Of a stretch of 64,000 nucleotides of DNA, positions 4,502-18,838 are shown piece after piece. Below the pieces are notes generated by a model, which made no database searches, had not been told where the DNA came from, and worked only from the letters and a program-made list of their open reading frames with translations. Source of the DNA: Firmicutes bacterium UBA5286 (GTDB lineage Bacteria > Bacillota > Proteinivoracia > UBA4975); contig DHSM01000006.1 of assembly GCA_002408465.1 (NCBI GenBank), positions 131,392-195,391 on the forward strand, given 5' to 3'. The position numbers and the translations under genes are program-made. Within the stretch, counting starts at the first letter, position 1. Every line of letters begins with the position of its first letter.

Positions 4502-6736
4502 TTAAGCCTTAATTTTTTTTATTTCCTGAACACTGGCTGCCTGCAGCCATTTAGTAAAAGCCTCCGCTTCCTCCAGGAGCAACTGCAGACGTTGTCGCCT
4601 GGGTCCGGCTTTAAGTTTTGTCCCGGTCCCAATGCCCAGCACCAGTTTGCCTTCAATCAGTTCATAGCCCACAATCCCTGACTCAGAGAGCAGACGCAGA
4701 GCAGCGAGGATAGTCTCCTCGGTCTGGGCCAGGGCGGCAGCCAGGGAAGCCAAGGGCGCTATACCTCCCAGCTGATTGAGGATATACTTTAGGGCGCCCA
4801 GGAATCCCGGAAGAAAATCCTCTCTTTCCCCCGGGGCAAAACCCAACACCACCAGATCCGGCTCCACCATAGCCAGGACTTGGCGCAACACAGCAGGGGA
4901 AGGAGGCGGGGTAAGGAGGACCAACACGCTGGCGGGCTCAAGACCCACCCGGGTAAAACCTGGATGATCCTGCCATTTTATCCCCTCCCGGTATACTGCC
5001 GCCTGGGAAAACTGGCGCAATACTTGGCGCCAGGGGAGCCCCCGCAAATCCTCATACTGATAGCTTCTCTTCAGGAGCAGCGGGCGCTCATGCCCCGGCC
5101 ACCAAGCTTTGAGAGTAGCCATTACCGATTGCTGCCCCCGGTAATAATCCTGGGCTACAGTGAATACAGCGCCAATGCTGCCTCCGGGCTCTGGGGCCGG
5201 GCCCCCGTCCCACAAGCCGGCGGCAAGACTGTGCCTGCGATCGCCAAGTGTGAGGATATAGCCTGTGCCTGCAGGACGAATACTCTTGACAGCCAGGCTC
5301 TGACTATACAAGAGAGGACGGGCATTGCCCTCGCCGCAAGGCGCCATGGCAGCTAGATCTTCCACCAGTTCCAAACTAATATCGCCGGCTTTGACCACCA
5401 AATCCACCGTCAATTCCGACTGGGTCCACCCTTCCATCTTCTGAGCGAGGACCTGCTGAGCAGCTAGAATAAAGCTCTCCAGCTTGTCCAGGGAAAGAGA
5501 AAAGCCGGCGGCGGCAGGGTGCCCGCCAAACTTTAGCAGGTGCTCACTGCAGAGGTCCAGCACCTGGTAGATGTCAATTCCCTCTACCGAACGAGCCGAG
5601 CCCACGATGCTCCCATCCCGGCCGTCAGTCATGAGGATGGCTGGCGCCAGGCTGCCAGAACAAACTTGGCCGGCAGCGATGCCGATTACCCCCTGATGCC
5701 AGCTGGAATTGTGGGCCACAACCGGCCTCCCCGGCTCCAGGTCCAAATCCTCTAGAATCTTCCGGCCCAATTCTTTGCGCAGAAGATTGAGCCGGTTAAG
5801 TTCACGGGCCAGGGGCTCGGCCTCGGCTCTCTCTTTGGCCAGCAGCAGATTTACTCCTAAGCTGCCACTGTCCAGGCGGCCGGCGGCATTGATGCGGGGA
5901 GCAATCTGAAAGCCCAGCTTTTCCTCATCCACCAGTCCCGGCTGTAGATTGGCAGCGGCAAAAAGCGCTGCCAGGCCGGGCCTCTCTGCCTGCTGCAGCA
6001 GGGGCAAGCCCCTGACATACAGCTGCCGGCTGTGGCCCAGCAAGGGCACCACATCGGCAATTATCCCCAGAGCGACCAGGTCCAGCAGGTCATCTGCCCC
6101 CAGATTATGCCGGTTCAGCAACTCCCGAGCGAGGACAAAAGCAGTCCCCACTCCAGGCAGGTCCCGGGACGGGTGGCCCTGGGGAAGGAGCTTAAAATTC
6201 AGCACTGCCGCCGCCTGAGGCAATTCCGGAGGCGGCGTATGGTGATCGGTTACCACTACATCCATCCCCAGCCGGCCTGCCAGCTGGATTTCCCCATGGT
6301 TGCTGATGCCGCAGTCACAGGTGATGATTAAGTTTACGCCTTCGCCGGCCAGGGCTTCTACCCGCCGGGCATCCATGCCGTAGCCTTCGCTGAAGCGGTT
6401 GGGAATATGCCAGACTGCCTGGGCCTGCAGCCTGTTTAGGGTGGTGACCAGCAAGGCGGTGGCGGTGATGCCGTCCACATCATAATCGCCGTAAACAGCA
6501 ATCTTTTCTCCCCGTTCCAGGGCGGTCTCCACCCGGGCGATTGCCTGTATCAGAGGCGGATACTTGCTGAGATCCGGCTCGGGCTGAGCCAGAGGGTTGA
6601 GAATATGCTCAATCTCTTCCTTGCTGTCAATGCCCCGGTTGTGGAAGATGGCTGCCAGGCGGGGGCTGCCGCCAGCCCACAGGACCATTTCCGGAGGCAG
6701 GAGACCTTCTGGCGGCAATTTGATGCGCACGCTCAA
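4502..6736 (-). CDS. recJ: Single-stranded-DNA-specific exonuclease RecJ
   Basis: DHH family motifs (VYGDYDVDGITATALL, CDCG, VVTDHH), DHHA1 region and a long Firmicutes-type C-terminal extension. Its start overlaps the stop of the upstream nuclease gene. Confidence 0.9.
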   Translation of the reverse strand: MSVRIKLPPEGLLPPEMVLWAGGSPRLAAIFHNRGIDSKEEIEHILNPLAQPEPDLSKYPPLIQAIARVETALERGEKIAVYGDYDVDGITATALLVTTLNRLQAQAVWHIPNRFSEGYGMDARRVEALAGEGVNLIITCDCGISNHGEIQLAGRLGMDVVVTDHHTPPPELPQAAAVLNFKLLPQGHPSRDLPGVGTAFVLARELLNRHNLGADDLLDLVALGIIADVVPLLGHSRQLYVRGLPLLQQAERPGLAALFAAANLQPGLVDEEKLGFQIAPRINAAGRLDSGSLGVNLLLAKERAEAEPLARELNRLNLLRKELGRKILEDLDLEPGRPVVAHNSSWHQGVIGIAAGQVCSGSLAPAILMTDGRDGSIVGSARSVEGIDIYQVLDLCSEHLLKFGGHPAAAGFSLSLDKLESFILAAQQVLAQKMEGWTQSELTVDLVVKAGDISLELVEDLAAMAPCGEGNARPLLYSQSLAVKSIRPAGTGYILTLGDRRHSLAAGLWDGGPAPEPGGSIGAVFTVAQDYYRGQQSVMATLKAWWPGHERPLLLKRSYQYEDLRGLPWRQVLRQFSQAAVYREGIKWQDHPGFTRVGLEPASVLVLLTPPPSPAVLRQVLAMVEPDLVVLGFAPGEREDFLPGFLGALKYILNQLGGIAPLASLAAALAQTEETILAALRLLSESGIVGYELIEGKLVLGIGTGTKLKAGPRRQRLQLLLEEAEAFTKWLQAASVQEIKKIKA

Positions 6737-7515
6737 GGCAGGTTCACCCCCTGGAGGACAATTTCCTGTACTTGCTCCCAGTCCACCTCATCAATGTCCA
6801 GCAGATCTTCCTGAACTTCCTCCAGGCCCTGGCCATGGCAGACAGGCCGGTATTCGCAAAACCGGCAATTTTTCTCGTTATTCGTGGCCGGGAAGGCTGC
6901 TGTGCTCATAATCTGATCAATAAGCCGGCGAATCCAGGCTCCGTCCTGTTCCTGCTGCTGGACAGAGTAATTTACAGTCAACGGCTCCCGGGGAAATCTG
7001 GGATTCCAGTAAACCATCTGCACATTTTCCGCTTCTACACCAAAATAGCCGGTAAGGGTCAAGAGATACAGATAAAGCCGGGTCTGAGGAGAAACTGCGA
7101 AAGCTGACCGGGGTGGCCGTTCATCGGTCTTCCAGTCGTAAATGGTAACTTTCCCCTGGCCCGCCGCCAGCAAGTCGTACTTGGCCAACAGGCGCAGATC
7201 ATTCTGAGCTGAGCGCAGCTCATATTCCGGCAAGAACTCTTCCTTAGCTGACAGAGGCAAATACTCTTGCAGCTGGTTCAGCCAAGTTGCCAGCATGGGT
7301 TCTCCCGGAGGCAGCGCCCCCACGCCGCCGCTGAAATAGCGCTGAGCCAAAAGGTGAAATCTCCGCCCCAGCTCAATATGCTCGCTGACTTTTCCGCCAG
7401 CGGCAAAAGGCCAATAGAGGCCGTCGATGTAACGATACTTAAATTTCAGGGGACAGCTCTGCCAGGCGGACAGAGAGGCCTGGCTAAACCAGAGTTTGCT
7501 CAGTTCACTTGGCAC
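6733..7515 (-). CDS. PD-(D/E)XK nuclease with 4-Cys Fe-S cluster motif (Cas4/AddB C-terminal-like)
   Basis: 260 aa. One early Cys (SCPLKFKYRY), RecB-type motif IYDWKTDE and C-terminal C-x2-C-x5-C (CRFCEYRPVCHG). Confidence 0.7.
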   Translation of the reverse strand: MPSELSKLWFSQASLSAWQSCPLKFKYRYIDGLYWPFAAGGKVSEHIELGRRFHLLAQRYFSGGVGALPPGEPMLATWLNQLQEYLPLSAKEEFLPEYELRSAQNDLRLLAKYDLLAAGQGKVTIYDWKTDERPPRSAFAVSPQTRLYLYLLTLTGYFGVEAENVQMVYWNPRFPREPLTVNYSVQQQEQDGAWIRRLIDQIMSTAAFPATNNEKNCRFCEYRPVCHGQGLEEVQEDLLDIDEVDWEQVQEIVLQGVNLP

Positions 7516-9646
7516 CTGCCTTCACCTCCATGGTTTTTTCCAGCTCTTTTATTGCCAATGCAGGCCGCTGCCGTCCGTATTTGCCCTTTTTATGCCAGGT
7601 CAGCAGTAAATTGACTTTTGCGCGGGTGATGGCCACATACAACAGGCGCAGGCGCTCACACAGGAGTTCTTCCCGGGCGGCGGCAATGGCAGCGACAGTG
7701 TCCCGGCCCTGCATTTCCGCCCGGGCCACGGCCACGGGATTGATGATTTCCTCCGGCAGCCAGCCGTACTCCGCCCTGATCTTATCTGTGGGCAGGCCGG
7801 GATAATCATTGCTTGTGACGCTGACCACATATACCGTATCCCATTCCAGGCCCTTGGCCCGATGGGCGGTGACCAGGTTTACTACCCCCGGCTGGGGGCT
7901 ATAGCCCCAGCGGTCAAAGAAAACATTGGCTGCCCCCAGGAAGCTAGTGGTCAGCCGCCGGACTTCTTCCGCTACCTGGGGCAGGCGCCAATTGGGGTAG
8001 ATAGCCAGCCACTGCTTAATGTCTACAGCGATTTTCTGGGCCAGGGCCAATTCCTGTTGCTGCAGGCCCAAGTCATTGGCGATTTCCAGCACCAAAATAT
8101 CCGGGGGCAGGTGCAGGGCCTCCAGCCAGACCTTTAGCTGCTCCAGCTGGGCCTGGACATCCACCCACAATTCAAACTCCCTCAAGCTCTGGGGCCAGCT
8201 GGGCTCAGAAAAGAGCAGCTGTTCTGCCGGCACTGTCTCCAAGTAGCCCCGGACAGGAGCAACATCAACTAGTTGGGGAACAAGCCGTTCCAGGGCGGCC
8301 ACCAGCAAACCGTTATCCCCGGGATTGGCCAGGAAGTTTAGGATTGCCTGGAGGTCATCAATGGTCTTGCGCCGCTCGGCTGGATACTGGCAAATTTCGT
8401 AAAAAGGAGCCTCCATATCCGTCAGCGCCTGTCTGAAATCAGACACCAGTTGGTTAGTAGGGGCGAGAATTGCCACTGTCTTATCAGGATTGCGCTGGAC
8501 GTAGCCGGCGGCATGTTTGCTGACCTCAAGTATTTCTTCCTCAAAGTCTTCATAGCTGCGAACAGCCAGGGTATAGCCCGGAGAGCTGGGATTGGGGAAG
8601 GGATCATCGGCGGCCACCGGCTGAATATAGTTGGGCTCCAGCGCCTGCCGGCAAGCTGGGATGGGATGCTCATTGCAGCACCAGTGGACCAGGCCGTTGG
8701 CCAGGTCGATAATGTCAGTGCTGCTGCGGTTGGACTGGAGCATGGGCAGAGCAACTACATCCGGACGCCGGGCATAATCCCGGAACAGGCCGGGATCGGA
8801 ATCGGTGAAGGTTCCCATTATTGCCTGGTTGGAATCTCCCACCCGCACCAGGTTGCCGCTGCCCTTAGCTAATTTCAGGAGCAAGGCCTGCTGCAGAGGG
8901 TTGGAATCTTGGGCTTCATCTTCAAAAATATAAGGCCAGGCTGCCGACAGCCGCAGGGCCAGTTCCGCATCATCCTCCACCATGCGCCAAGCCCGCAGCA
9001 GGAGGTCGTCAAAGTCCACCATCCCCAGCTGGGCCAGGCGCTCCTGGTATTCACGATAGAACTCCGCCGTCCAGGCATAAAAATTATCGCCGCTGCTCTG
9101 CGCTGCCGCCTCTTGGGGAGACAGACCTAAAGCTTTAAAGCGGCGGATCATCTCTTTACCCATGTCCACGGTGCGGTTCCGCCACCCTTCAAGGGTCTGC
9201 TGAAAGCGCATATGGGATTCGCTGATCTTCAGCACCGCTTGCCAGCGCTGTTGGTTGCGGTCGATCCAGCGGTCGACGATCTCCTCAACCAGCCGCTCCC
9301 GGTAACCACCGTCGAGGATGGAAAAATCATCCCGAAGCAGAGCTGAATCCGGGCGCTGGCGGATAATCTGCAAAGCCAATGAATGCAGGGTCCTGACTTC
9401 AAAGCCAACTCCCCTGGGCAGATCCCGCTTTTCCAGCCAATCGCCAATCTTGCGGGTAAAGTTTGCCACCGCCGAGTTCATGACTGTAACCACCAGGATC
9501 TTGGAACCCCGGGGCAGACCTTCACTGATTAAACGGGCTGCCAGCCAGGAAAGCACAGTGGTCTTGCCGGCGCCGGGGACGGCAGGAACGGCCAGTAGTC
9601 CCCCTTTATACTCTGCTACTTCACTTTGTCCCGGTCGAAAGCGCAT
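7505..9646 (-). CDS. UvrD/PcrA-family SF1 DNA helicase (AddA helicase-core-like, no nuclease domain)
   Basis: Walker A AVPGAGKTT, motif II FEDEAQD, motif III VGDSNQAI, motif V LVTAHRAKGLEWD, motif VI YVAITRAK. The likely start is internal (MRFRPGQ at about 9646) with GGAGAGGAGGGG upstream. The longer track ORF overlaps the upstream gene by 200 nt. Confidence 0.85.
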   Translation of the reverse strand: MRFRPGQSEVAEYKGGLLAVPAVPGAGKTTVLSWLAARLISEGLPRGSKILVVTVMNSAVANFTRKIGDWLEKRDLPRGVGFEVRTLHSLALQIIRQRPDSALLRDDFSILDGGYRERLVEEIVDRWIDRNQQRWQAVLKISESHMRFQQTLEGWRNRTVDMGKEMIRRFKALGLSPQEAAAQSSGDNFYAWTAEFYREYQERLAQLGMVDFDDLLLRAWRMVEDDAELALRLSAAWPYIFEDEAQDSNPLQQALLLKLAKGSGNLVRVGDSNQAIMGTFTDSDPGLFRDYARRPDVVALPMLQSNRSSTDIIDLANGLVHWCCNEHPIPACRQALEPNYIQPVAADDPFPNPSSPGYTLAVRSYEDFEEEILEVSKHAAGYVQRNPDKTVAILAPTNQLVSDFRQALTDMEAPFYEICQYPAERRKTIDDLQAILNFLANPGDNGLLVAALERLVPQLVDVAPVRGYLETVPAEQLLFSEPSWPQSLREFELWVDVQAQLEQLKVWLEALHLPPDILVLEIANDLGLQQQELALAQKIAVDIKQWLAIYPNWRLPQVAEEVRRLTTSFLGAANVFFDRWGYSPQPGVVNLVTAHRAKGLEWDTVYVVSVTSNDYPGLPTDKIRAEYGWLPEEIINPVAVARAEMQGRDTVAAIAAAREELLCERLRLLYVAITRAKVNLLLTWHKKGKYGRQRPALAIKELEKTMEVKAGAK

Positions 9647-11588
9647 TCTCACACCCCTCCTCTCCCGCCAGCGCCCCATACAGCGCTGCCAACAATTCCC
9701 CATCCTGCTCAAACCCCTGACTGTCAATATTGGCGGCGGCCACAAGCAAATGCCCGCCGCAGCGGCGGAGTAGCGCTCTGGCCACCCTAGCCCCATTGTG
9801 GAGGCTGACAGACTGGTTGTATTCATCGGTCCAGATTTCCCCCTGAGGCCAGCGGGCCATAAGCACGTGGGGATTAATCAGCTCTCGCACATCCTGCTGA
9901 AACCAACGCCGGCTGGTGCAATCCATCCATACCTGCACTGTCGAGCGGAGATGTCCGGAGATATAGGCATAGGGCGTAGTCAAGATGACAGCATGCTCCC
10001 GGTTTGCCGGCTCTAGCAGACTCTCGGCCGCCACAGTTCCTGCCGAAAGCATGCGGATAAAGGCGGCGCCGGGGCTTGTACCCAGGTTAATGCGCCCTGT
10101 AGTCTTAATAAATTTATGGGCAGATACCAGCAGCTGCCTGCAGACCACCAAGTCATCGCGAGCGGGAGGCAGCCGGGAAAGCAGTTCACCAAAGACCCGT
10201 TGAAAGAAGAGGTCAATTGGCTGTTCGGGCCCCTGGCGGTAACTGTCCAGCCATTGTCGCAAGAGATCATAGCCCTGGGCGGCCCGAAAGCCCACCCGCT
10301 CCCGCTGCCACAGCTCCAGGGCCGGTAAATTGCAGTCCAAGACCTGCCGGCTCAGCAACCAGGCGCGCACGGGGTCCAGCTTGAGCAGCAGCTGCAAGGA
10401 CTGGGCCAGGTCAGGCACCCCCCAATCCAGTTGCCACTGGGGATGAGCCAACAGGGCCAAGGTCATCATCGCCCGCACATAAGGCTCGTCAATAAGGCGC
10501 CGATTCTTGGTGAGCACATTGAGAGACACTCCAGCTTCCTTGAGATGAAAGGCGAGAGTATGCTCCAGGACCTTATCTGCCAGGGGAGCAATGACTGCAA
10601 TTTCAGAAGCAGGCACCCCCTGGGCAAGCAGGCGCACAACCCTTTCCCCCACCCGGTCCAGGAGCTCGCTGCGCAGATCTTCATGAATCAGCTCGATTTG
10701 CGGCCGCCGTCTGGGCAAGACGGGGACGTTGCCAGAAAGGATACTTGAATACACTGCCCTTCCCGCCCCCAGCTGCTGCTGAGAGCGCACCGGCACAATT
10801 TTGCCAATGGCGCCGAAGCGCTGCCAGGCCCCTTGGGCATCGGCCCCGAAAAAACCGGCGTGGCCGCCGTCGGTGCTGAAAGTGAGCACAGCGCTCTCCA
10901 CATGTTCCAGCAACGCTGCAATTAAATCTTGGGCGGCAGGAGACTGTTCATCCACATCGTCTGCCAGCAGATGCTTAAATTGCCGCAATTCCTGGCGGTA
11001 CCAGGGCTCAGCCAGCAGCTGGCGGTAAAGGGCCACCGCCAAACCATAATCCAGGGTTCCGGACTTTTCCGCCCCCGCAATATAACTGTCCAGCACCTGC
11101 TGGGCAGATTTATACACATTCGGGTCTTTATCGGGCATTGCCGCTGCCAGACGGCTGCCAATTTCAGAAAAAGCTATTCCGTTCAGGCTAGCCAAAACTA
11201 GACAGCTACCCAGCTGAATGGCCAGGCGTTCGGGACTGGTAACCAAGCCGGCAAAATCTGCCTGCCTGGTCTGGATATGCCGAAGCATGGCAAACTGACC
11301 GGTCTCAACGGTGAGGAATTCCGGCTCCAGCCACATCTCTCCCCAAGGATCCAGGCGCGGCCAACAGCGCCGGATTTCCCGCTGCACCCAGCCAAAATAT
11401 GTATACACATGCAAGGGACCGGCCCAGGGAAAATCCACCCGCTCACGCCAGTCCCGGACATCCCGGGCGTTCCACAGCAGCACCAGGATTGAATCAGTTC
11501 TTCCTTTTCGGGCCAAAGAACTGTAGCGCTGCCACAGCTTTTCAGTTTTCCCCGCCCCACCTGGGCCCACCAAGAGCATCCTCTCCAT
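9621..11588 (-). CDS. P-loop SF1-helicase-like protein (AddB/RexB N-terminal-like, possibly degenerate helicase)
   Basis: N-terminal Walker A LLVGPGGAGKTEK, DExx-like LLADDVDEQ and a degenerate motif V/VI region near the C-terminus. No nuclease motif. Confidence 0.55.
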   Translation of the reverse strand: MERMLLVGPGGAGKTEKLWQRYSSLARKGRTDSILVLLWNARDVRDWRERVDFPWAGPLHVYTYFGWVQREIRRCWPRLDPWGEMWLEPEFLTVETGQFAMLRHIQTRQADFAGLVTSPERLAIQLGSCLVLASLNGIAFSEIGSRLAAAMPDKDPNVYKSAQQVLDSYIAGAEKSGTLDYGLAVALYRQLLAEPWYRQELRQFKHLLADDVDEQSPAAQDLIAALLEHVESAVLTFSTDGGHAGFFGADAQGAWQRFGAIGKIVPVRSQQQLGAGRAVYSSILSGNVPVLPRRRPQIELIHEDLRSELLDRVGERVVRLLAQGVPASEIAVIAPLADKVLEHTLAFHLKEAGVSLNVLTKNRRLIDEPYVRAMMTLALLAHPQWQLDWGVPDLAQSLQLLLKLDPVRAWLLSRQVLDCNLPALELWQRERVGFRAAQGYDLLRQWLDSYRQGPEQPIDLFFQRVFGELLSRLPPARDDLVVCRQLLVSAHKFIKTTGRINLGTSPGAAFIRMLSAGTVAAESLLEPANREHAVILTTPYAYISGHLRSTVQVWMDCTSRRWFQQDVRELINPHVLMARWPQGEIWTDEYNQSVSLHNGARVARALLRRCGGHLLVAAANIDSQGFEQDGELLAALYGALAGEEGCENALSTGTK

Positions 11589-11627
11589 CCCAACCCCTCC
11601 CGTCCCTATTATATCATTGGTCCATGC

Positions 11628-11690
11628 AACAAGGGACGGTCAATTGCTTCCTGGATTGTGTAATCCCAGGTGCGGAAGCAATTAAACCGT
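11628..11690. repeat. Long imperfect palindrome (about 18-bp arms) at the GC-content break
   Basis: gggacggtcaattgcttcc ... ggaagcaattaaaccgtcccc, with a nested cctggatt/atcccagg pair in the loop. Confidence 0.6.
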
Positions 11691-11774
11691 CCCCATCCTA
11701 ACAATCATGTCGCTCTAGTTGAGCACAAACTCAATGGCCCGGAACAGCTGGGTAATATTCCCTATGAAAATGGT

Positions 11775-12446
11775 CTACGCAATCATCCCGTCCACAATGT
11801 TCAAGGTTCTATTGCAGTATTGGCTGATATTCGGATTATGAGTAACAATTATCACTGTCTTGCCTTCCCTGTTCAGTTTTTGAAGCAAGCTTAGAATTTC
11901 ATCTGAAAGCCTTGTATCCAAAGCTCCTGTTGGTTCATCCGCCAAGATAATCTCTGGCTCATTTACCATTGCCCTAGCAATAGCGACCCGCTGTTTTTCA
12001 CCACCAGAGAGATTACGGGTAAGCCGTTTGGCCAATTTACTAATCTCAAGTTTTTCCATTATTTTATAAGCACGCCTTTCCATATCGCTCCATTTAACCG
12101 ACTTATTAAATAGCAAGGGGGTGATGACATTCTCTATGGCCGTGCGATCATTTAAGATGCCGAAATCCTGAAGAACAAACCCAACCTGTTTGTTTCGAAT
12201 TTTGGCAAGCATGTTCTGTTTTAATGTGCTGACCAATTGTCCGTTAAGGAAGTACTTACCATCCGTGGGATAATCAAGACAGCCAATAATGTTCAATAAG
12301 GTTGACTTTCCAGAACCAGATGGGCCCATTATGGCTAACATTTCACCTTTATCAACAGTCAAACTGATCCCCTTTAGGGCATGTATTTGTTCTGGAGTAT
12401 TCTGATTATAGATTTTATGTAAGCCGTGAACCTGAATATAAGTCAT
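11775..12446 (-). CDS. ABC transporter ATP-binding protein (MacB/LolD/FtsE-like)
   Basis: Walker [10 protein letters not shown], signature [14 protein letters not shown], Walker [12 protein letters not shown]. Confidence 0.9.
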
Positions 12447-12452
12447 TATTTT

Positions 12453-13724
12453 TCATCCCTTTCTCATTAAGCTGGAAAGACTTCTGTCTCTGTATAAAAA
12501 TAAAACTGTAACCATTGAAACTAACATATATGCAGCACATATTCCTAAAGTGACTATTATACTCAGAGGACTATATAGCATCGTGTCAGTATTCTCTGCT
12601 GCAGATATTCCCACTTTCACAGCGCCAAGAGCAACTACTGCAGGCAGGAAGACAATTATTGCGTTACATGCCATTTCCACAAAAAACAGATGGGGCCAGT
12701 CCATTCCATGCATAAGATAAATCACGACTTCCTGCCTGTTTTTTAACATCTGCAATATATTGTAGCCACTGATTCCAATTAAGGATATTAGGGCAACTAC
12801 CAAACCAAGACTGATAAAGCTCCTATTCCCTATAATAATCTGCTTTCTTTCCCTGCTATCTATATCTTCAAAAGAAATAAATTTTCCTAACCCTTCCGCC
12901 TCAGCTTGATTGTTCCACTGGTCTACTAATAAATCTATAGGTCCATTACCTTCAAAAAAACAGATAAAACTCGGATCTTCGGCGGTAAATTGTTTAATAT
13001 TGTCATCGCCCAACCCAAAGGGCGGCAAAATACAAAAGAAATCTCTGCTATGGGAGATTCTTTTTCCCACAAGATCTGAGAGCAAAATGCTATCTATATT
13101 TCCACCGGGAAAGGTGTAATAGCAATATTTATTTTGCAAAACTCCTATTACCGTAGTTTTTACCTTATACAATTCCTCATTATGTCCGATGGTCAAATCC
13201 ATTTGAGACCCCAACCCGTACATTTTGCTTAATGGACCGCTAACTATTATAGGTACAGTCCCGTTGGTAGTTAACAAGTCTCTTAACTTACCCTCCCTTA
13301 AAGGAAGAAACAGACTTTCCAGCAACACAGTGTCATAAACCTGGAAACCAGCCAGGGCATATTCCTGTTGTTCTGTGTCCCAAACCAATCCCATTCCAGC
13401 GTGGACGGTTCCAACAGCAATTATATCCTGATACCTGGTGATACTAGTTTTCATTTCATAGTAGCTGTTGAAAATATCCTCAGAGCCATCATATATGTTG
13501 CCTGTTTTTCCCCCGATTAAATTGCAGAAGCGTTCAGCCGGCAAAAATAGCACAGCATTATCTAGCTTGGAAGTCTTTATCAGATTTCGGGACTGATTAA
13601 CATAAGCGAACTTTGCAGAAAGTATGTTAAATATCAAACACATAAGCATAATCTGAGTCATTAACACAATAATACTACCTTTGTTTTTCCACATTCCCTT
13701 GCAGATAATGTACAGATTTTTCAC
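12453..13724 (-). CDS. FtsX-family ABC permease (MacB-type, large extracytoplasmic domain)
   Basis: N-terminal TM, about 250-aa periplasmic-type domain, three C-terminal TM helices. Stop overlaps the ATPase start region. Confidence 0.7.
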   Translation of the reverse strand: MKNLYIICKGMWKNKGSIIVLMTQIMLMCLIFNILSAKFAYVNQSRNLIKTSKLDNAVLFLPAERFCNLIGGKTGNIYDGSEDIFNSYYEMKTSITRYQDIIAVGTVHAGMGLVWDTEQQEYALAGFQVYDTVLLESLFLPLREGKLRDLLTTNGTVPIIVSGPLSKMYGLGSQMDLTIGHNEELYKVKTTVIGVLQNKYCYYTFPGGNIDSILLSDLVGKRISHSRDFFCILPPFGLGDDNIKQFTAEDPSFICFFEGNGPIDLLVDQWNNQAEAEGLGKFISFEDIDSRERKQIIIGNRSFISLGLVVALISLIGISGYNILQMLKNRQEVVIYLMHGMDWPHLFFVEMACNAIIVFLPAVVALGAVKVGISAAENTDTMLYSPLSIIVTLGICAAYMLVSMVTVLFLYRDRSLSSLMRKG

Positions 13725-14863
13725 TGCCAGTTTCCCCCAATATGCCGTGCAATTTGGCGCCTCAGCGCCTGGGGCATCAGCCTAGATACCGTCCATGCTA
13801 TTGCATGGGAAAATAATAGGGTCAAGAATAGACAGCAAATATATAGAATCCAGATATTGGTTATATCTATCCTGTAGTAAAGGTACCCTAATGGTATAAG
13901 AAGCGGTGATACAGTGTGGTAAACCAACAAACCCAGTCCGAAAGATACTGATGTAATGATAATAGCTTCAAATACTATATGGGAATACAACCAGAATCTT
14001 GTGCATCCACAAATAATATAGGTGTAGTATTTTTTGGTATTATAACTAATCCAATATCTATAAAAAGAAAAGACGTTAACCAAACTAAGTCCTACTGCTA
14101 ATACGATTAATAATAACAGGAGATAGATTTCATATAAATACTTCTGATCGCTGGGAACCGGAAGTGAAAGTGACTCATGAGGAAACAGGGAATAAAATTT
14201 GTCATTAAACCGCTCTATTTGACTTTCCGTAAGTGCGGTTTCAAAATAGAAATCTACTGTTGCACAAGATCCTGCAACTTTTTTATATTCTTTGAAGGGT
14301 ATGATCGCATTTCTTTCATTAACTAATTCCGGAGACCCTTTTACAGGCGATATTACCGGAAAAACCCCTACGCCAATTACATTATACTTGTTACCCTGAA
14401 TGGCAAATTGGGCCCCGCTGATATTCATGAGTTTATCAAAGTCGAGAAGGCAACTTGAAAGCAAAACCGGCCTCTCTGTATTGATGGCTGAATTAAAGTC
14501 TCGTCCTGTTTCCAGCACATAGCCTATGGAATTGCCATAATAGCCTGTTAGAATATAGTCGCCATCCTCAATATAGGTATGGGCATAAAGTCTGCTGATT
14601 TCTGGGAGATAGTTACTGGTATAAATTTCCTGCTCAATAAATTGGAGAACGTTTTTTAGATTTGAGTTGTCAAAGTACATGGTAAAGTGGCGCAAGCTCA
14701 TATGAATACTATCCAGTTCCTTATAGCGTGCTATATTATCGGCATAGAAGTATATAAATGCTGAGAAACATGTTGTTAAGCCAAGCAACATCACAAAAAA
14801 AATCAAAGTCTTTTTTTTGATAAAATCAATGACATCATAAATGACATGAAAAATAAACTTCAT
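13721..14863 (-). CDS. FtsX-family-like ABC permease (second permease)
   Basis: Same topology (N-terminal TM, large loop, C-terminal TM bundle). Start at MKFIF preceded by AAAGGAGA. ATGA overlap with the downstream gene. Confidence 0.6.
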   Translation of the reverse strand: MKFIFHVIYDVIDFIKKKTLIFFVMLLGLTTCFSAFIYFYADNIARYKELDSIHMSLRHFTMYFDNSNLKNVLQFIEQEIYTSNYLPEISRLYAHTYIEDGDYILTGYYGNSIGYVLETGRDFNSAINTERPVLLSSCLLDFDKLMNISGAQFAIQGNKYNVIGVGVFPVISPVKGSPELVNERNAIIPFKEYKKVAGSCATVDFYFETALTESQIERFNDKFYSLFPHESLSLPVPSDQKYLYEIYLLLLLIVLAVGLSLVNVFSFYRYWISYNTKKYYTYIICGCTRFWLYSHIVFEAIIITSVSFGLGLLVYHTVSPLLIPLGYLYYRIDITNIWILYICCLFLTLLFSHAIAWTVSRLMPQALRRQIARHIGGNWQ

Positions 14864-15091
14864 AAGGGTCTCCTTTCGTAAAAGGACTGTATTTCTTGTA
14901 TACATTTCTCCTAGTTTTTTGTTATTCCATCATCTTTCCCTGTGAGGAATATACCAAATATAATATATTGAGTCAATGTTTTAGATATACCCCCTGACTG
15001 AACCGAGTAAATAGTGGATATTAATGCATGGGAGAATCATCCTCTTACTGGATACATTATAAAGACTTCTTCTGCTTCAAAAGTAAAAACG

Positions 15092-15122
15092 GCTCCCAGA
15101 GGAAGCCGTCCTATCTGCACCA
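15092..15122 (-). terminator. Terminator downstream of the ABC exporter remnant
   Basis: acggctcc-caga-ggaagccgt hairpin with a preceding A-run on plus, giving a T-run on minus. Confidence 0.45.
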
Positions 15123-15142
15123 CATAGACATTGTTTTTGTCC

Positions 15143-16124
15143 TCACGCGCTCCGGGCCGTGAGGATACCATCGGTCATCCTGTAGACCTGGTCGGCGGCG
15201 TCGGCGATGGCCAAGTCATGGGTGACCACCACGACGCAGTAGTTTTCAGCGTGGGCCAGGTGCCGGAGTATGTCCATGACCCTGTTGCCGTTGGCGGTAT
15301 CCAGATTGCCAGTGGGCTCGTCGGCCAGCAGCAATCGTGCCCCGGTGGAAAGCGCCCGGGCAATGGCCACCCGCTGCTGCTCCCCGCCCGAGAGGTTGGA
15401 CAGAAAGCGCCGCCGCTTTTCCTCGGCAATGTCGTGCCCCTGGCCCTGGCCCAGGAGCGGGCCAGGGAAATGCTGGCCGCCGAAAGTACACACTGAAATT
15501 GGCGCAACTCAAATAGTCGATACTCTCTTATATCGGCGCCGTTAATCCTGATTACACCTTTATCCGGGTCATATAGCCGCAGTAGCAGCTTTATAAGCGT
15601 TGACTTGCCCGAGCCATTCAGCCCTACCAGGGCTACCTTTTCTTGACGGTGGAGGAGAAAACTCACATCTTCCAGGGCAGGTACTTGGCCCCTGGATAAG
15701 TAAAGGAAACATGCTCAAATTCTATAGATTCGACCCTGTCAAGACGCTTAGTACCCTTATCCGCAATGCGGTTATGGAAGCTCTCCAGGGTTTTAATATT
15801 TGCGATCTTTAACTGATTGTCATAAATCTGCATGGCTGAGTGGGTAAGCAGGGAAATGGCCGCCCAAAGCTGGCTTAAGAGGCCGGTATACAGGGAATAA
15901 TCCCCCACTGTCGCCATACCGTCCAGCACCCGAAACGCAATATTGACGCCGATGAGCACAACGACGACCTCCGGCAGACAATCCAGCAGGCAGGTCAGGA
16001 TTGTACGTTTCCGGGTCATGTCCCTCCGCTTGCCAAAAAGCTCCTTCCACAGCCGGGCATAACGATCTTTTAAGCGTTCTCCCGCATTGAACACCCGAAC
16101 ATCCTGGGCATAGCCCTTGTCCAC
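15143..16124 (-). pseudogene. Frameshifted, N-terminally truncated ABC exporter (permease-ATPase fusion) remnant
   Basis: Three overlapping minus-strand ORFs in different frames. 15663-16124 holds the end of the TM domain and the start of the NBD (IEFEHVSFTYP). 15175-15666 has Walker A GLNGSGKSTLIKLL then goes out of frame. 15143-15493 has [15 protein letters not shown], Walker B LLLADEPTGNLD and the H-loop VVVVTHD. Upstream is too short for a full TMD. Confidence 0.75.
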
Positions 16125-16262
16125 AGCAATGCTCTGATAATAGCTCTTATGCGTTCCCCGTTTATCTGGGCAATGCTCAGATGGTACAGGGACTTTGTGT
16201 ATTTTGCAGCCGCAATTGAGCTAATTTATAGTCACTTTCTTCATCTAGTGGAACTCCTTTCG

Positions 16263-17594
16263 CTAGTTGCAGGCTATATCCTGTTTCTTAAAGATAACGG
16301 CGCCCACTATAAAAAGCAAGATTGTTGCTATGGACAGGGTGAGCAGGCTGCTGAGGTAGGTAGAAGCCAGGCTCCCTTCCAGTAAGGGAACGACATCGGC
16401 CTTGGAGAAGAGATCCCAGGCAGTTGTGCTTAAGTTAGGTATTATGTTGCCAAAGGCGCTACCCAATACAAAGATTCCGGCGGCGACTAGGTGGGCAATG
16501 ACCTCATTCTTAACCAGGATTGAAATCAATAATCCCAGAGCGGTGCAGAAGAGGATAAAGAGCAGTATTTGCACAGCAGCCAGGCCGAAGAACTGCCAGA
16601 GGGGAATAAAGTCATATAATTCCAGTCTGGATACATCCGCCAGAACGGGAATCTTGCTGAGTCCGGTGTCGTAAAACCCTATATTTATTCCCATATCTTT
16701 AAATACTGTAAAGCTTGACAGGACATTCTTATCAAGAAGTACGGGGTAGTTTAATCCTCGGAAGCCGTGCCTGATACCCAGAATTAGAATGGACAAGATC
16801 TGGGGAAGAACTATTACGCTGCTGCTGGCGAAAAAACTCAGGGAGAGCTTGCGCAACAAATAACGAGTCCTGCTCAAGGGAGCAGATAAACTCACCTTTA
16901 TTACGCCAGAGCTCTTATCTCTGTGCAACATATTGACAGACATTAAGAGGACGACGATTCCCAAAATGTTGGGTAAACCACGACGCAGAAAATTAAACGT
17001 GAAAGCCCAGGGGGAAGTATCGTGGGCCCCGGTTGGGGGGAGGCCGGTCTTTACCATCTCCAAGTAATAACATGCATTTATCATGATAGCTAAAACTTCA
17101 TCTGGTGCAAATGTTGCCGCTGCGGCAGGGTGTACCATAAAACTTGGGTAGTCCAACTCCTCAGTAATATTCTCCCAGTCGCCGCCAAAAAACTGTTGGG
17201 GACATGGTGAAACGTTTTTTAAAAGGTGGTCCCAAGATAGCAACCGGTCTTCTGCCCGGGACCTATGGTATTCCACCCAGTCTCGCGACATATATGATTC
17301 ATAAATTCTCCTCGCCAATAAAACACGATAGTGGTAATACTCCTGGGATTTCTCATACTCCTCGGGGGATGCACTAATTGCCCCTCCCCGCCACCAGCTC
17401 TCAACTATATCCACAACGCCCTCATTTCCACCAATACTAGCTTTTAGAGCTGCTATCTTTTGACTCTCTGCACCCTTACTTTCATGCAAGGCTTGCTGAA
17501 TAAAGACCAATTGAAACAAGAAGAGAATCAGGATGAGGATTAAAAACTTATAGCTTTTACATATGCTTTTCAGTTCAAGGAAGAAGGATTCCAT
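16263..17594 (-). CDS. ABC-2 family transporter permease
   Basis: Multi-TM membrane protein at the end of the ATPase + 2 permease operon. Large extracytoplasmic loop then a TM bundle. Confidence 0.65.
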   Translation of the reverse strand: MESFFLELKSICKSYKFLILILILFLFQLVFIQQALHESKGAESQKIAALKASIGGNEGVVDIVESWWRGGAISASPEEYEKSQEYYHYRVLLARRIYESYMSRDWVEYHRSRAEDRLLSWDHLLKNVSPCPQQFFGGDWENITEELDYPSFMVHPAAAATFAPDEVLAIMINACYYLEMVKTGLPPTGAHDTSPWAFTFNFLRRGLPNILGIVVLLMSVNMLHRDKSSGVIKVSLSAPLSRTRYLLRKLSLSFFASSSVIVLPQILSILILGIRHGFRGLNYPVLLDKNVLSSFTVFKDMGINIGFYDTGLSKIPVLADVSRLELYDFIPLWQFFGLAAVQILLFILFCTALGLLISILVKNEVIAHLVAAGIFVLGSAFGNIIPNLSTTAWDLFSKADVVPLLEGSLASTYLSSLLTLSIATILLFIVGAVIFKKQDIACN

Positions 17595-18838
17595 TATGCC
17601 GGGCCTCCCTTCAGGTCTTGTTTATTCAGGACAACCAAGCTTAGAGCCAGGAGCAGGAATGTACATCCCCCCAGCAGGGTCAGGTAGGCCAGAGCGGAAC
17701 CAATATAAAAGCCCTGAAAAACATCCTTAAAGCCCAGGGCTGCAAAGGGCCAGGCCAGGTAGAAGCTGCTGCCGGTGGGGAAGAGAATCCGGAAGCTGTA
17801 ATCCAGGAAAAGCAAGCAAATAACAGCGCTCAGGGCATTGGCCGTGCTGCCAAGCAGTAATGAAGCTGTTCCGGTAAGGGCGAGAGTAAAACAGGACATC
17901 AACAGGTAGATTGGAATCACTCCCGCAATGTATGCAGACCAGGGCACCAGGGGTAGCACAGTGTCGGCAGCGGAGGGATCCGTGACCAAACTGGTATAGG
18001 AGCCCTCCATGTAAAAGACTGGGTAGTTTATGTCTCCCAATCCACGAACCAAGGACAGAACACCAAAGGTCAGGGCGATGAGCCCTGTGACCAAAACGAT
18101 ACTGGCAGTTATGTTGAGACCAAACTTCACTACATGAATAATGCTGCGTTTATGGGGCTGGGAGTACAGGACCTTGTATGCTCCGCCTTCAATGTCTTCA
18201 GCAAATAAGTCCATGCTCAGCATCAATAGGGTAATTACTACAATTAGTATCCAGGGGAAGCTGGTGAGATGGTAGAGGAAGTTGGCTGCAGTCATTTCAT
18301 AGGGACTGTTTAGGGGGTCAATATTATCCCTGAGCAGGGCCTGATTCACTACCAGGCGCTCTTCTATTTCTAAGGGATTAGCGCTTTGGGCAAGAATACT
18401 TGTCGACTCAACAAGACCTTCTTCAAAACCGTTGAGCAAATGTTGGTCCCGGGCTATCCAGAGCTCCAGCTTTTCCTGGGCTTTGTCTTTACTGTATTCA
18501 CCGGCTAAGATTGACTGCTGGCAGCAATACACGCGCTGCCACTGTAGGAAGTTTGCCTTCTTCTCCAGTTCAGCAATCACTACTTCGGCGTTGGGTGTGG
18601 TGCCAGCTTTGGCCGCTTCCCGGGCCATCTCCAATTCTTTGTGGACATTCGTCCCCTCAATCTGAATTAAGGCCAGTTCCTGATTAAGTTCAACTTCGAG
18701 GGCAGCCCAGTAATTATTGTCTTGGATAATGTTGTAGGTAATCATGGCCAGGAGGGAAGCTAGAAACACCAGGAGAACAACTAGGTTCTTCTTAGCATAC
18801 CAGAACTTAAGACACTCAAATTGCAGTATCGCCTTCAT
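17594..18838 (-). CDS. ABC-2 family transporter permease
   Basis: N-terminal TM, large soluble loop, C-terminal 5-6 TM. Start overlaps the stop of the ATPase gene. Confidence 0.65.
   Translation of the reverse strand: MKAILQFECLKFWYAKKNLVVLLVFLASLLAMITYNIIQDNNYWAALEVELNQELALIQIEGTNVHKELEMAREAAKAGTTPNAEVVIAELEKKANFLQWQRVYCCQQSILAGEYSKDKAQEKLELWIARDQHLLNGFEEGLVESTSILAQSANPLEIEERLVVNQALLRDNIDPLNSPYEMTAANFLYHLTSFPWILIVVITLLMLSMDLFAEDIEGGAYKVLYSQPHKRSIIHVVKFGLNITASIVLVTGLIALTFGVLSLVRGLGDINYPVFYMEGSYTSLVTDPSAADTVLPLVPWSAYIAGVIPIYLLMSCFTLALTGTASLLLGSTANALSAVICLLFLDYSFRILFPTGSSFYLAWPFAALGFKDVFQGFYIGSALAYLTLLGGCTFLLLALSLVVLNKQDLKGGPA

Follow-up and report, generated by a model that had tools for sequence, protein, structure and literature searches.

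A conserved four-gene module joining a helicase, its degenerate paralogue, an iron-sulfur nuclease and RecJ, most likely a relative of the AddAB/AdnAB resection machines

This work concerns a group of four genes on contig DHSM01000006.1 of Firmicutes bacterium UBA5286 (assembly GCA_002408465.1), within the 64-kb stretch from position 131,392 to position 195,391. The whole of this stretch is called the window below, and its own numbering is used for all coordinates. The four open reading frames (ORFs) occupy positions 11588-4502, all on the minus strand, and follow one another in the order A-B-C-recJ (Table 1). Genes A and B overlap by 26 nucleotides (nt), B and C by 11 nt and C and recJ by 4 nt. 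A preliminary description of the locus had recorded the common orientation together with the first and the last of these overlaps, and both were found as given there; the B/C overlap is additional. Mechanical ORF calling makes gene B 60 codons longer, starting from an ATG at 9826, which would result in a 206-nt overlap with gene A. Homologues and public gene calls support the shorter, 713-amino-acid (aa) form of the protein. Public assemblies with identical sequence, obtained from fermentation and digester metagenomes, carry the same four genes with the same lengths; their relatives are labelled uncultured Bacillota.

Table 1. Genes of the module and elements upstream of it (window coordinates; SF1A, superfamily 1A)
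Feature	Position	Strand	Details	Assignment or basis
gene A	9621..11588	-	655 aa, ATG start	degenerate "motor-like" SF1A UvrD-fold protein, no nuclease domain
gene B	7505..9646	-	713 aa, MRFRP start	complete UvrD/PcrA-type SF1A helicase, no nuclease domain
gene C	6733..7515	-	260 aa, GTG start	stand-alone RecB-family PD-(D/E)XK nuclease, 1+3 Cys Fe-S signature, disordered acidic C-terminal tail
recJ	4502..6736	-	744 aa, TTG start	single-stranded-DNA-specific 5'-3' exonuclease; DHH, DHHA1, OB and C-terminal domains
candidate promoter and ribosome-binding site of operon	11596..11616	-	extended -10 TGATATAAT at 11616-11608; GGAGG at 11600-11596, 7 nt 5' of gene A ATG	read from sequence, consensus match only
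long hairpin	11633..11694	-	stem of about 20 bp, between upstream ABC-ATPase stop (11775) and operon extended -10	RNA fold

Protein B matches the Pfam UvrD-helicase (8e-42) and UvrD_C (2e-23) families. Its scores against the PcrA, UvrD and Rep equivalog models (118-131 bits) lie far below all of the respective cutoffs (911-1144 bits), and the AddA equivalogs TIGR02785 and TIGR02784 gave 67 bits (cutoff 708) and 69 bits (cutoff 861). Fourteen orthologues from four lineages, when aligned, show no variation in the Q motif or in any of the motifs I, Ia, II (EDEAQD), III, IV, V and VI. Since the protein ends directly after motif VI with every motif kept and no nuclease domain, it is a complete SF1A motor lacking a nuclease, in agreement with the preliminary description, which had seen in it a UvrD-type helicase with motifs I-VI. 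In Halanaerobium a separate PcrA gene (whose product has a Tudor domain) and ligA lie near the module, arguing that gene B is not the housekeeping pcrA.

The product of gene A had been thought to resemble AddB/RexB. Its degenerate superfamily 1 motifs and UvrD fold were borne out; a specific kinship with AddB was not. Taken singly, protein A remained below threshold with the Pfam UvrD-helicase model (E 1e-3; 19 bits, cutoff 23) and found no match among PDB sequences. A profile of 20 family members matched UvrD/PcrA (3e-9) and AdnA (6e-8) in the PDB ahead of AdnB (4e-3) and AddB (9e-3). The AddB match is colinear over residues 15-361 and weak, and no AddB-specific model gave a match. The predicted structure of protein A shows the full UvrD-like fold with its four subdomains, and PcrA, Rep, AdnB, AddA and AdnA all rank above AddB among its structural matches. 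Proteins A and B are paralogous (hhalign probability 97.7%, E 2.4e-12).

Within the protein A family there is no variation in the Walker A residues (G8/G13-K14-T15) or in the motif II Asp (D210). Asp or Asn stands in place of the catalytic Glu and Gly in place of the motif III Gln, and the Arg of "RGA" is lost. With Walker A and the Asp kept and the other motifs gone, protein A resembles AddB in kind, in which only motif I and an Asp (D208) survive of the helicase motifs (PMC3321194). A profile search returned 666 cluster representatives of the family at E<=1e-30. The best 150 of these are all at most 774 aa long, so that, as judged from these representatives, the family appears never to carry a nuclease domain. 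A degenerate helicase paralogue of this sort would be hard to understand as a free-standing enzyme and easy to understand in the role of a subunit, for which AddB, RecC and AdnA are precedents. At 902741-904714 of pILYOP01, a 962-kb secondary replicon of Ilyobacter polytropus, gene A has a homologue that stands alone (24% identity, 90% coverage). Neither B, C nor recJ is near it; the family is thus present as an orphan in a fourth phylum, Fusobacteriota.

Protein C belongs to Pfam family PDDEXK_1 (1e-30) and matches Cas_Cas4 weakly; with the Cas4 equivalog TIGR00372 it scored 29.6 bits, below the cutoff of 65. Residues D114, D127-x-K129, Q144xxxY148 and the cysteines C21 and C217xxC220x5C226 are invariant in two independent alignments, pointing to an intact RecB-type active site and a 1+3 Cys iron-sulfur (Fe-S) signature. 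The PD-(D/E)XK nuclease and its cysteine signature had been proposed before and were upheld; where the preliminary description had named Cas4 and the C-terminal part of AddB, the closest structural match is the nuclease domain of AdnA rather than AddB or Cas4. By sequence profile, the best PDB match is the nuclease domain of AdnB (1e-3). The Argonaute-associated nuclease ACE1 is also among the structural neighbours of protein C. PDB entries 9iab and 9iac were considered as possible representatives of the present system and rejected; they correspond to ACE1, a Cas4-like protein that is a family neighbour of protein C. Pfam and NCBIfam scans found only one PD-(D/E)XK domain across the four module proteins, confirming that a second, AddA-type nuclease is absent.

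An acidic C-terminal tail, [LI]D[FW][DE]x[IV]xEIxF-COOH, is conserved in the protein C family, with examples such as LDFDQIAEIEF and LDWESIEEIQF (loci L028, L036, L069, L086, L088 and others). It resembles the peptide (DDDIPF, EDDLPF) found at the C-terminus of SSB, the single-stranded-DNA-binding protein; that peptide docks into RecJ's C-terminal domain (PMC4846377). In the window the tail (6733-6810) is predicted to be disordered (pLDDT <50). The clade to which the window belongs has DWEQVQEIVL followed by QGVNLP, and the terminal Phe is not kept. The protein C of Desulfolucanica, where B and C stand alone, lacks the acidic tail.

The fourth gene is recJ, as originally annotated. Its product passes the RecJ equivalog TIGR00644 (443 bits, cutoff 397), contains the Pfam domains DHH, DHHA1 and RecJ_OB, and matches the solved RecJ structures 8y30 (2.7e-80), 2zxo and 5f54 in the PDB. 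RecJ is a processive 5'-3' single-strand exonuclease. The idea of a C-terminal domain specific to the RecJ of the module was dropped: when the RecJ family profile was compared to the PDB, the alignment extended to position about 620-635, reaching the C-terminal domain of the solved proteins, so that this region is at least partly an ordinary RecJ C-terminal domain.

The order A-B-C-recJ recurs in three bacterial phyla, with similar gene sizes and overlaps and with protein identities of 25-39%. Recurrence at this degree of divergence indicates that the arrangement is not due to chance. In a metagenome-assembled genome (MAG) of the Rhodothermales, proteins of 697, 762, 279 and 764 aa, the last being RecJ, are encoded in the same order (28-34% identity). 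Starting from homologues of protein C, the four-gene cluster was also located in Halanaerobium hydrogeniformans, Anoxybacter fermentans and a Desulfotomaculum sp., while in Desulfofalx A-B-C is followed by recJ 5 kb downstream. Conservation of the gene neighbourhood, which the preliminary description had raised as a check, thus holds for Anaerolineae, for Halanaerobium, Anoxybacter and Desulfotomaculum, and for Rhodothermales. A scan of a genome collection for the protein A family, made with a subset alignment (A2) that biases its outcome towards Anaerolineae, yielded 80 species-level loci, nearly all from this class of the Chloroflexota. Cultured hosts among them include Anaerolinea thermolimosa, Pelolinea submarina and Caldilinea. 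Forty-five Anaerolineae loci with at least 7.5 kb of sequence downstream of A were informative, and 23 of these, including that of P. submarina, have A, B, C and recJ in order. At intact loci the starts and stops overlap or abut, as they do in the window. In A. thermolimosa recJ lies a few kb further downstream of A-B-C.

The 56.5-kb plasmid pSR56 of Salinibacter ruber M8, a member of the Rhodothermales, bears all four genes, its own recJ included (NC_014028.1, record 10001-17884). An XRE-family regulator lies upstream of this copy, and toxin-antitoxin and recombinase genes are in its vicinity. Of 72,556 plasmids, no other has a full copy, and none was present in 50,697 phage records. All other copies seen reside on long chromosomal contigs or complete chromosomes, next to unrelated, stable neighbours. 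Genes such as those for PcrA-LigA, HSP33 and SpoIID flank the module in other taxa; they are housekeeping in nature and differ from one taxon to another.

Some Anaerolineales show a different picture, with A and B pushed apart by inserted genes (loci L006, 12794-15582, and L015, 13153-13629). The gaps contain spermine-synthase-like, PDDEXK_3 and PIN genes with a transposase nearby, and neither C nor recJ is found within 10 kb. These gaps were considered as the site of a replacement nuclease; the idea was rejected in view of the insertions that they hold. Judging from the gene content, the operon appears to have decayed or to have been rearranged in one subclade of this order. In the Rhodothermales MAG a gene for a 140-aa Peptidase_S24 protein (LexA/UmuD-like) directly follows recJ (locus L005, 17656-18078); this is the sole hint of a link to the damage response at any of the loci.

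Upstream of gene A, the folding energy of the hairpin listed in Table 1 is -33.9 kcal/mol (z = -6.5 relative to shuffled sequences; 0/200 shuffles were equally stable). It is probably the terminator of the upstream ABC-transporter unit, insulating the operon; a role as an operator is possible. The G+C content of the module (0.56-0.58) is higher than that of its flanks, the window as a whole having about 0.49. The stretch at 11775-16124 has genes for an ABC ATPase and for two large permease-like proteins that match no Pfam family. With its G+C content of 0.39-0.45 it looks compositionally foreign beside the module. The neighbours of the module in the window (transporters, PrsA/SurA-like, NUDIX and LysM genes) are housekeeping genes, and the window has no other ORF above 700 aa.

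Together, the gene anatomy, motif status, predicted folds and cross-phylum gene order observed here lead us to propose, with a probability of roughly 0.55, that the four genes encode a machine for the resection of double-strand-break ends that is similar to AddAB and AdnAB, split over separate polypeptides and equipped with one nuclease. In AddAB and AdnAB, one active motor tracks 3'-5' along the 3' strand, and a degenerate or dispensable UvrD-like domain sits behind it on the same strand. The second subunit's Fe-S nuclease, positioned at the fork, cleaves the 5' strand that is displaced there; cleavage of the 3' strand falls to the nuclease that the motor subunit carries (PMC3321194, PMC5314763, PMC13000450). 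By analogy with these enzymes we infer complex formation, the assignment of strands and the biological role of the module as follows. Protein B would be the single active 3'-5' motor, unwinding from the DNA end. Protein A, predicted to bind nucleotide and to be catalytically degenerate, would act as a "motor-like" subunit, following the motor on the 3' strand and taking the place of the N-terminal part of AddB or AdnA, or of RecC. Protein C would be the counterpart of the Fe-S nuclease of AdnA/AddB, placed at the fork and handling the displaced 5' strand, which would be passed to RecJ, made from the same transcript, and degraded processively. The module includes no 3'-strand nuclease of the AddA/AdnB type, so a 3' single-stranded tail would be left for the loading of RecA, and we propose that, with no such nuclease present, there is no need to switch off 3'-strand cutting. 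Such a machine would amount to a natural form of the RecBC(D-)-plus-RecJ and RecQ/UvrD-plus-RecJ routes in which the partnership is hard-wired. Across phyla, the overlaps of starts and stops that join A, B and C are conserved, which suggests that the three proteins are produced stoichiometrically, as would be expected for subunits of a complex.

Several observations speak against a dedicated resection machine with RecJ as a built-in partner. Linkage to recJ is not universal: five of the 45 informative Anaerolineae loci carry A-B-C with no recJ within 10 kb. A further 11 have A and B only, six have A alone, and Desulfolucanica has only the B+C pair, located beside uvrC/uvrA. The plasmid-borne copy is as compatible with an accessory function that can be transferred as it is with a core one. 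Finally, the Cheo/LexA box GAACN4GTTC does not occur anywhere in the window, and it is not enriched upstream of gene A (6/68 loci, compared to 13/192 controls); these data give no sign of SOS control through this sequence.

A bolder form of the resection proposal would see in the module a fourth architectural class beside RecBCD, AddAB and AdnAB: a three-polypeptide complex with a single motor, devoid of a 3'-strand nuclease and so of any need for Chi-type attenuation, physically coupled to RecJ (possibly via the tail of protein C) and serving as the main resection pathway in groups such as Anaerolineae and Halanaerobiales. We put this forward tentatively, as the less probable extension of the proposal.

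Among the alternatives, the one that fares best is a repair operon whose products act separately. On this view no stable holoenzyme of the AddAB kind would form: the UvrD paralogue, its degenerate partner and RecJ would take part in gap, excision or RecF-type processing, and ends would be trimmed by the Cas4-like nuclease. Helicases are known to work with RecJ without a stable complex, and no direct contact between RecJ and RecQ was found in Deinococcus (PMC4846377). The separability of recJ from A-B-C at many loci, and of C in some lineages, is consistent with such an arrangement, as is the occurrence of B+C alone next to uvrC/uvrA in Desulfolucanica. In addition, a role in repair is suggested, in the passages devoted to it, for the operon of unfused UvrD and Cas4-like genes of Hudaiberdiev et al. 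2017. Set against this are the conserved overlaps, suggestive of complex subunits, and the co-translation of a degenerate helicase paralogue with the motor, which argues for a subunit role. On balance, we regard separately acting products as unlikely.

The preliminary description had also offered, on an equal footing, the possibility that the locus is a helicase-nuclease defence system that has recruited RecJ and destroys foreign DNA, that is, phages or plasmids. The PADLOC models GajB, Cas4, DruK and pAgo-associated Cas4-like do match proteins B and C, ACE1 is a structural neighbour of protein C, and passages of PMC5704561 link UvrD-Cas4 fusions to defence contexts. The elevated G+C content of the module and the company that the pSR56 copy keeps are further points on this side. 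However, the PADLOC matches concern generic domains; protein A is matched weakly (E about 0.01), RecJ is not matched, and GajA or any other system-defining partner is missing. The module is surrounded by housekeeping genes rather than defence islands, its 80 species-level loci belong almost entirely to the Anaerolineae, and its RecJ scores above the threshold of the housekeeping equivalog. With no phage record and a single plasmid among its carriers, defence has little support and seems improbable, well short of the equal standing that it had been given. Least probable of all is a transferable cassette for recombination, one working for mobile elements (for instance in the recombination-dependent replication or repair of plasmids) and spreading between phyla as a unit without an essential host role: the complete pSR56 copy, the similar divergence across three distant phyla and the PIN, transposase and PDDEXK_3 insertions that break the cluster in some Anaerolineales point in this direction, but the rarity of the module on plasmids, its absence from phages and the stable chromosomal settings of all other copies speak against it.

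The resection machine proposed above can be set beside the known enzymes. Like AddAB (RexAB; Bacillota, Bacteroidota, Alphaproteobacteria), the module combines a single active SF1A motor of 3'-5' polarity, a UvrD-fold subunit in which only Walker A and an Asp (D208 in AddB, D210 in protein A) remain, and a RecB-family nuclease with the 1+3 Cys signature of an Fe-S cluster; the gene for the degenerate subunit precedes that for the motor, as in addB-addA. In other respects the two differ: AddAB has two polypeptides of about 1100-1250 aa, the module three, of 655, 713 and 260 aa. The Fe-S nuclease, fused in AddB, is the product of a separate gene two positions downstream of A. Where AddA is a fusion of motor and nuclease of ~1200 aa, protein B has 713 aa and no nuclease (67 bits with the AddA model, against a cutoff of 708), so that the 3'-strand nuclease of AddA is absent and there is one nuclease active site rather than two, one per strand. 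Unlike addAB, the module has recJ inside its operon. The AddAB of Thermus, whose AddA has 857 aa, was considered as a compact precedent and set aside, as it is still described as a two-gene addAB locus.

AdnAB, reported only from Actinobacteria (PMC6452273), likewise consists of two paralogous UvrD-like subunits, and the lagging "motor-like" subunit is encoded ahead of the lead motor. AdnAB can dispense with the ATPase of this first subunit, and in protein A the ATPase is degenerate. The Fe-S nuclease of AdnA is the best structural match of protein C, and by profile protein A matches AdnA (6e-8) and protein C matches AdnB (1e-3) best among the resection enzymes in the PDB. In contrast to the module with its single, free-standing protein C, AdnAB has two fused nucleases, one per subunit; AdnA retains Walker B while protein A lacks the catalytic Glu, and AdnAB is not linked to recJ. 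By its lack of fusions, its nuclease number and its equivalog scores the module falls outside both AddAB and AdnAB, while sharing their logic.

RecJ replaces the nuclease of RecBCD in nuclease-deficient mutants of E. coli (cited in PMC5314763) and RecQ/UvrD act with RecJ in Deinococcus (PMC4846377). As proposed here for the module, the end is opened in these routes by a 3'-5' helicase, and a 3' tail is left once RecJ has removed the 5' strand. In both organisms, however, the genes are not linked and the partnership is a conditional or genetic one, whereas in the module recJ shares its operon with the genes for a degenerate helicase subunit and an Fe-S nuclease.

The nearest published relative is the operon of unfused UvrD and Cas4-like (pfam12705) genes that Hudaiberdiev et al. 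2017 describe, in the passages concerned, as occurring in "mostly Clostridiales". In these passages an unfused UvrD-like helicase is followed by a PDDEXK_1 nuclease in a non-defence context, and the two genes are probably the B+C core of the module. The operon differs in having two genes. RecJ has zero occurrences in the text of that study, and the passages on the operon include neither a degenerate helicase paralogue nor an occurrence outside Bacillota. The likeness to Gabija and Cas4 is limited to the matches of protein B with GajB-type UvrD helicase models and the weak matches of protein C with Cas4 models; the OLD/TOPRIM nuclease GajA of Gabija is not among the called genes around the module. 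No cas-related Pfam families were found among these genes or among ten larger ORFs elsewhere in the window, CRISPR arrays not having been searched for. Literature searches for the module found no paper that describes the four genes together.

Break resection in bacteria is taught as the work of RecBCD, AddAB or AdnAB, with RecJ as a back-up. According to Bernheim et al. 2019, 88% of genomes encode one of these three enzymes and about 12% encode none (PMC6452273). The module described here is conserved and widespread, and it is most likely a relative of the AddAB/AdnAB resection machines. If this is true, it would show how resection machines assemble and evolve from modules, and it would offer naturally split subunits with which to dissect the contributions of the inactive helicase domain and of the Fe-S nuclease. 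The existence of cultured hosts and of a plasmid-borne copy makes the module approachable by experiment. For Anaerolineae, Halanaerobiales, Rhodothermales and other large groups that have been little studied, it would possibly also be the resection pathway that is missing.

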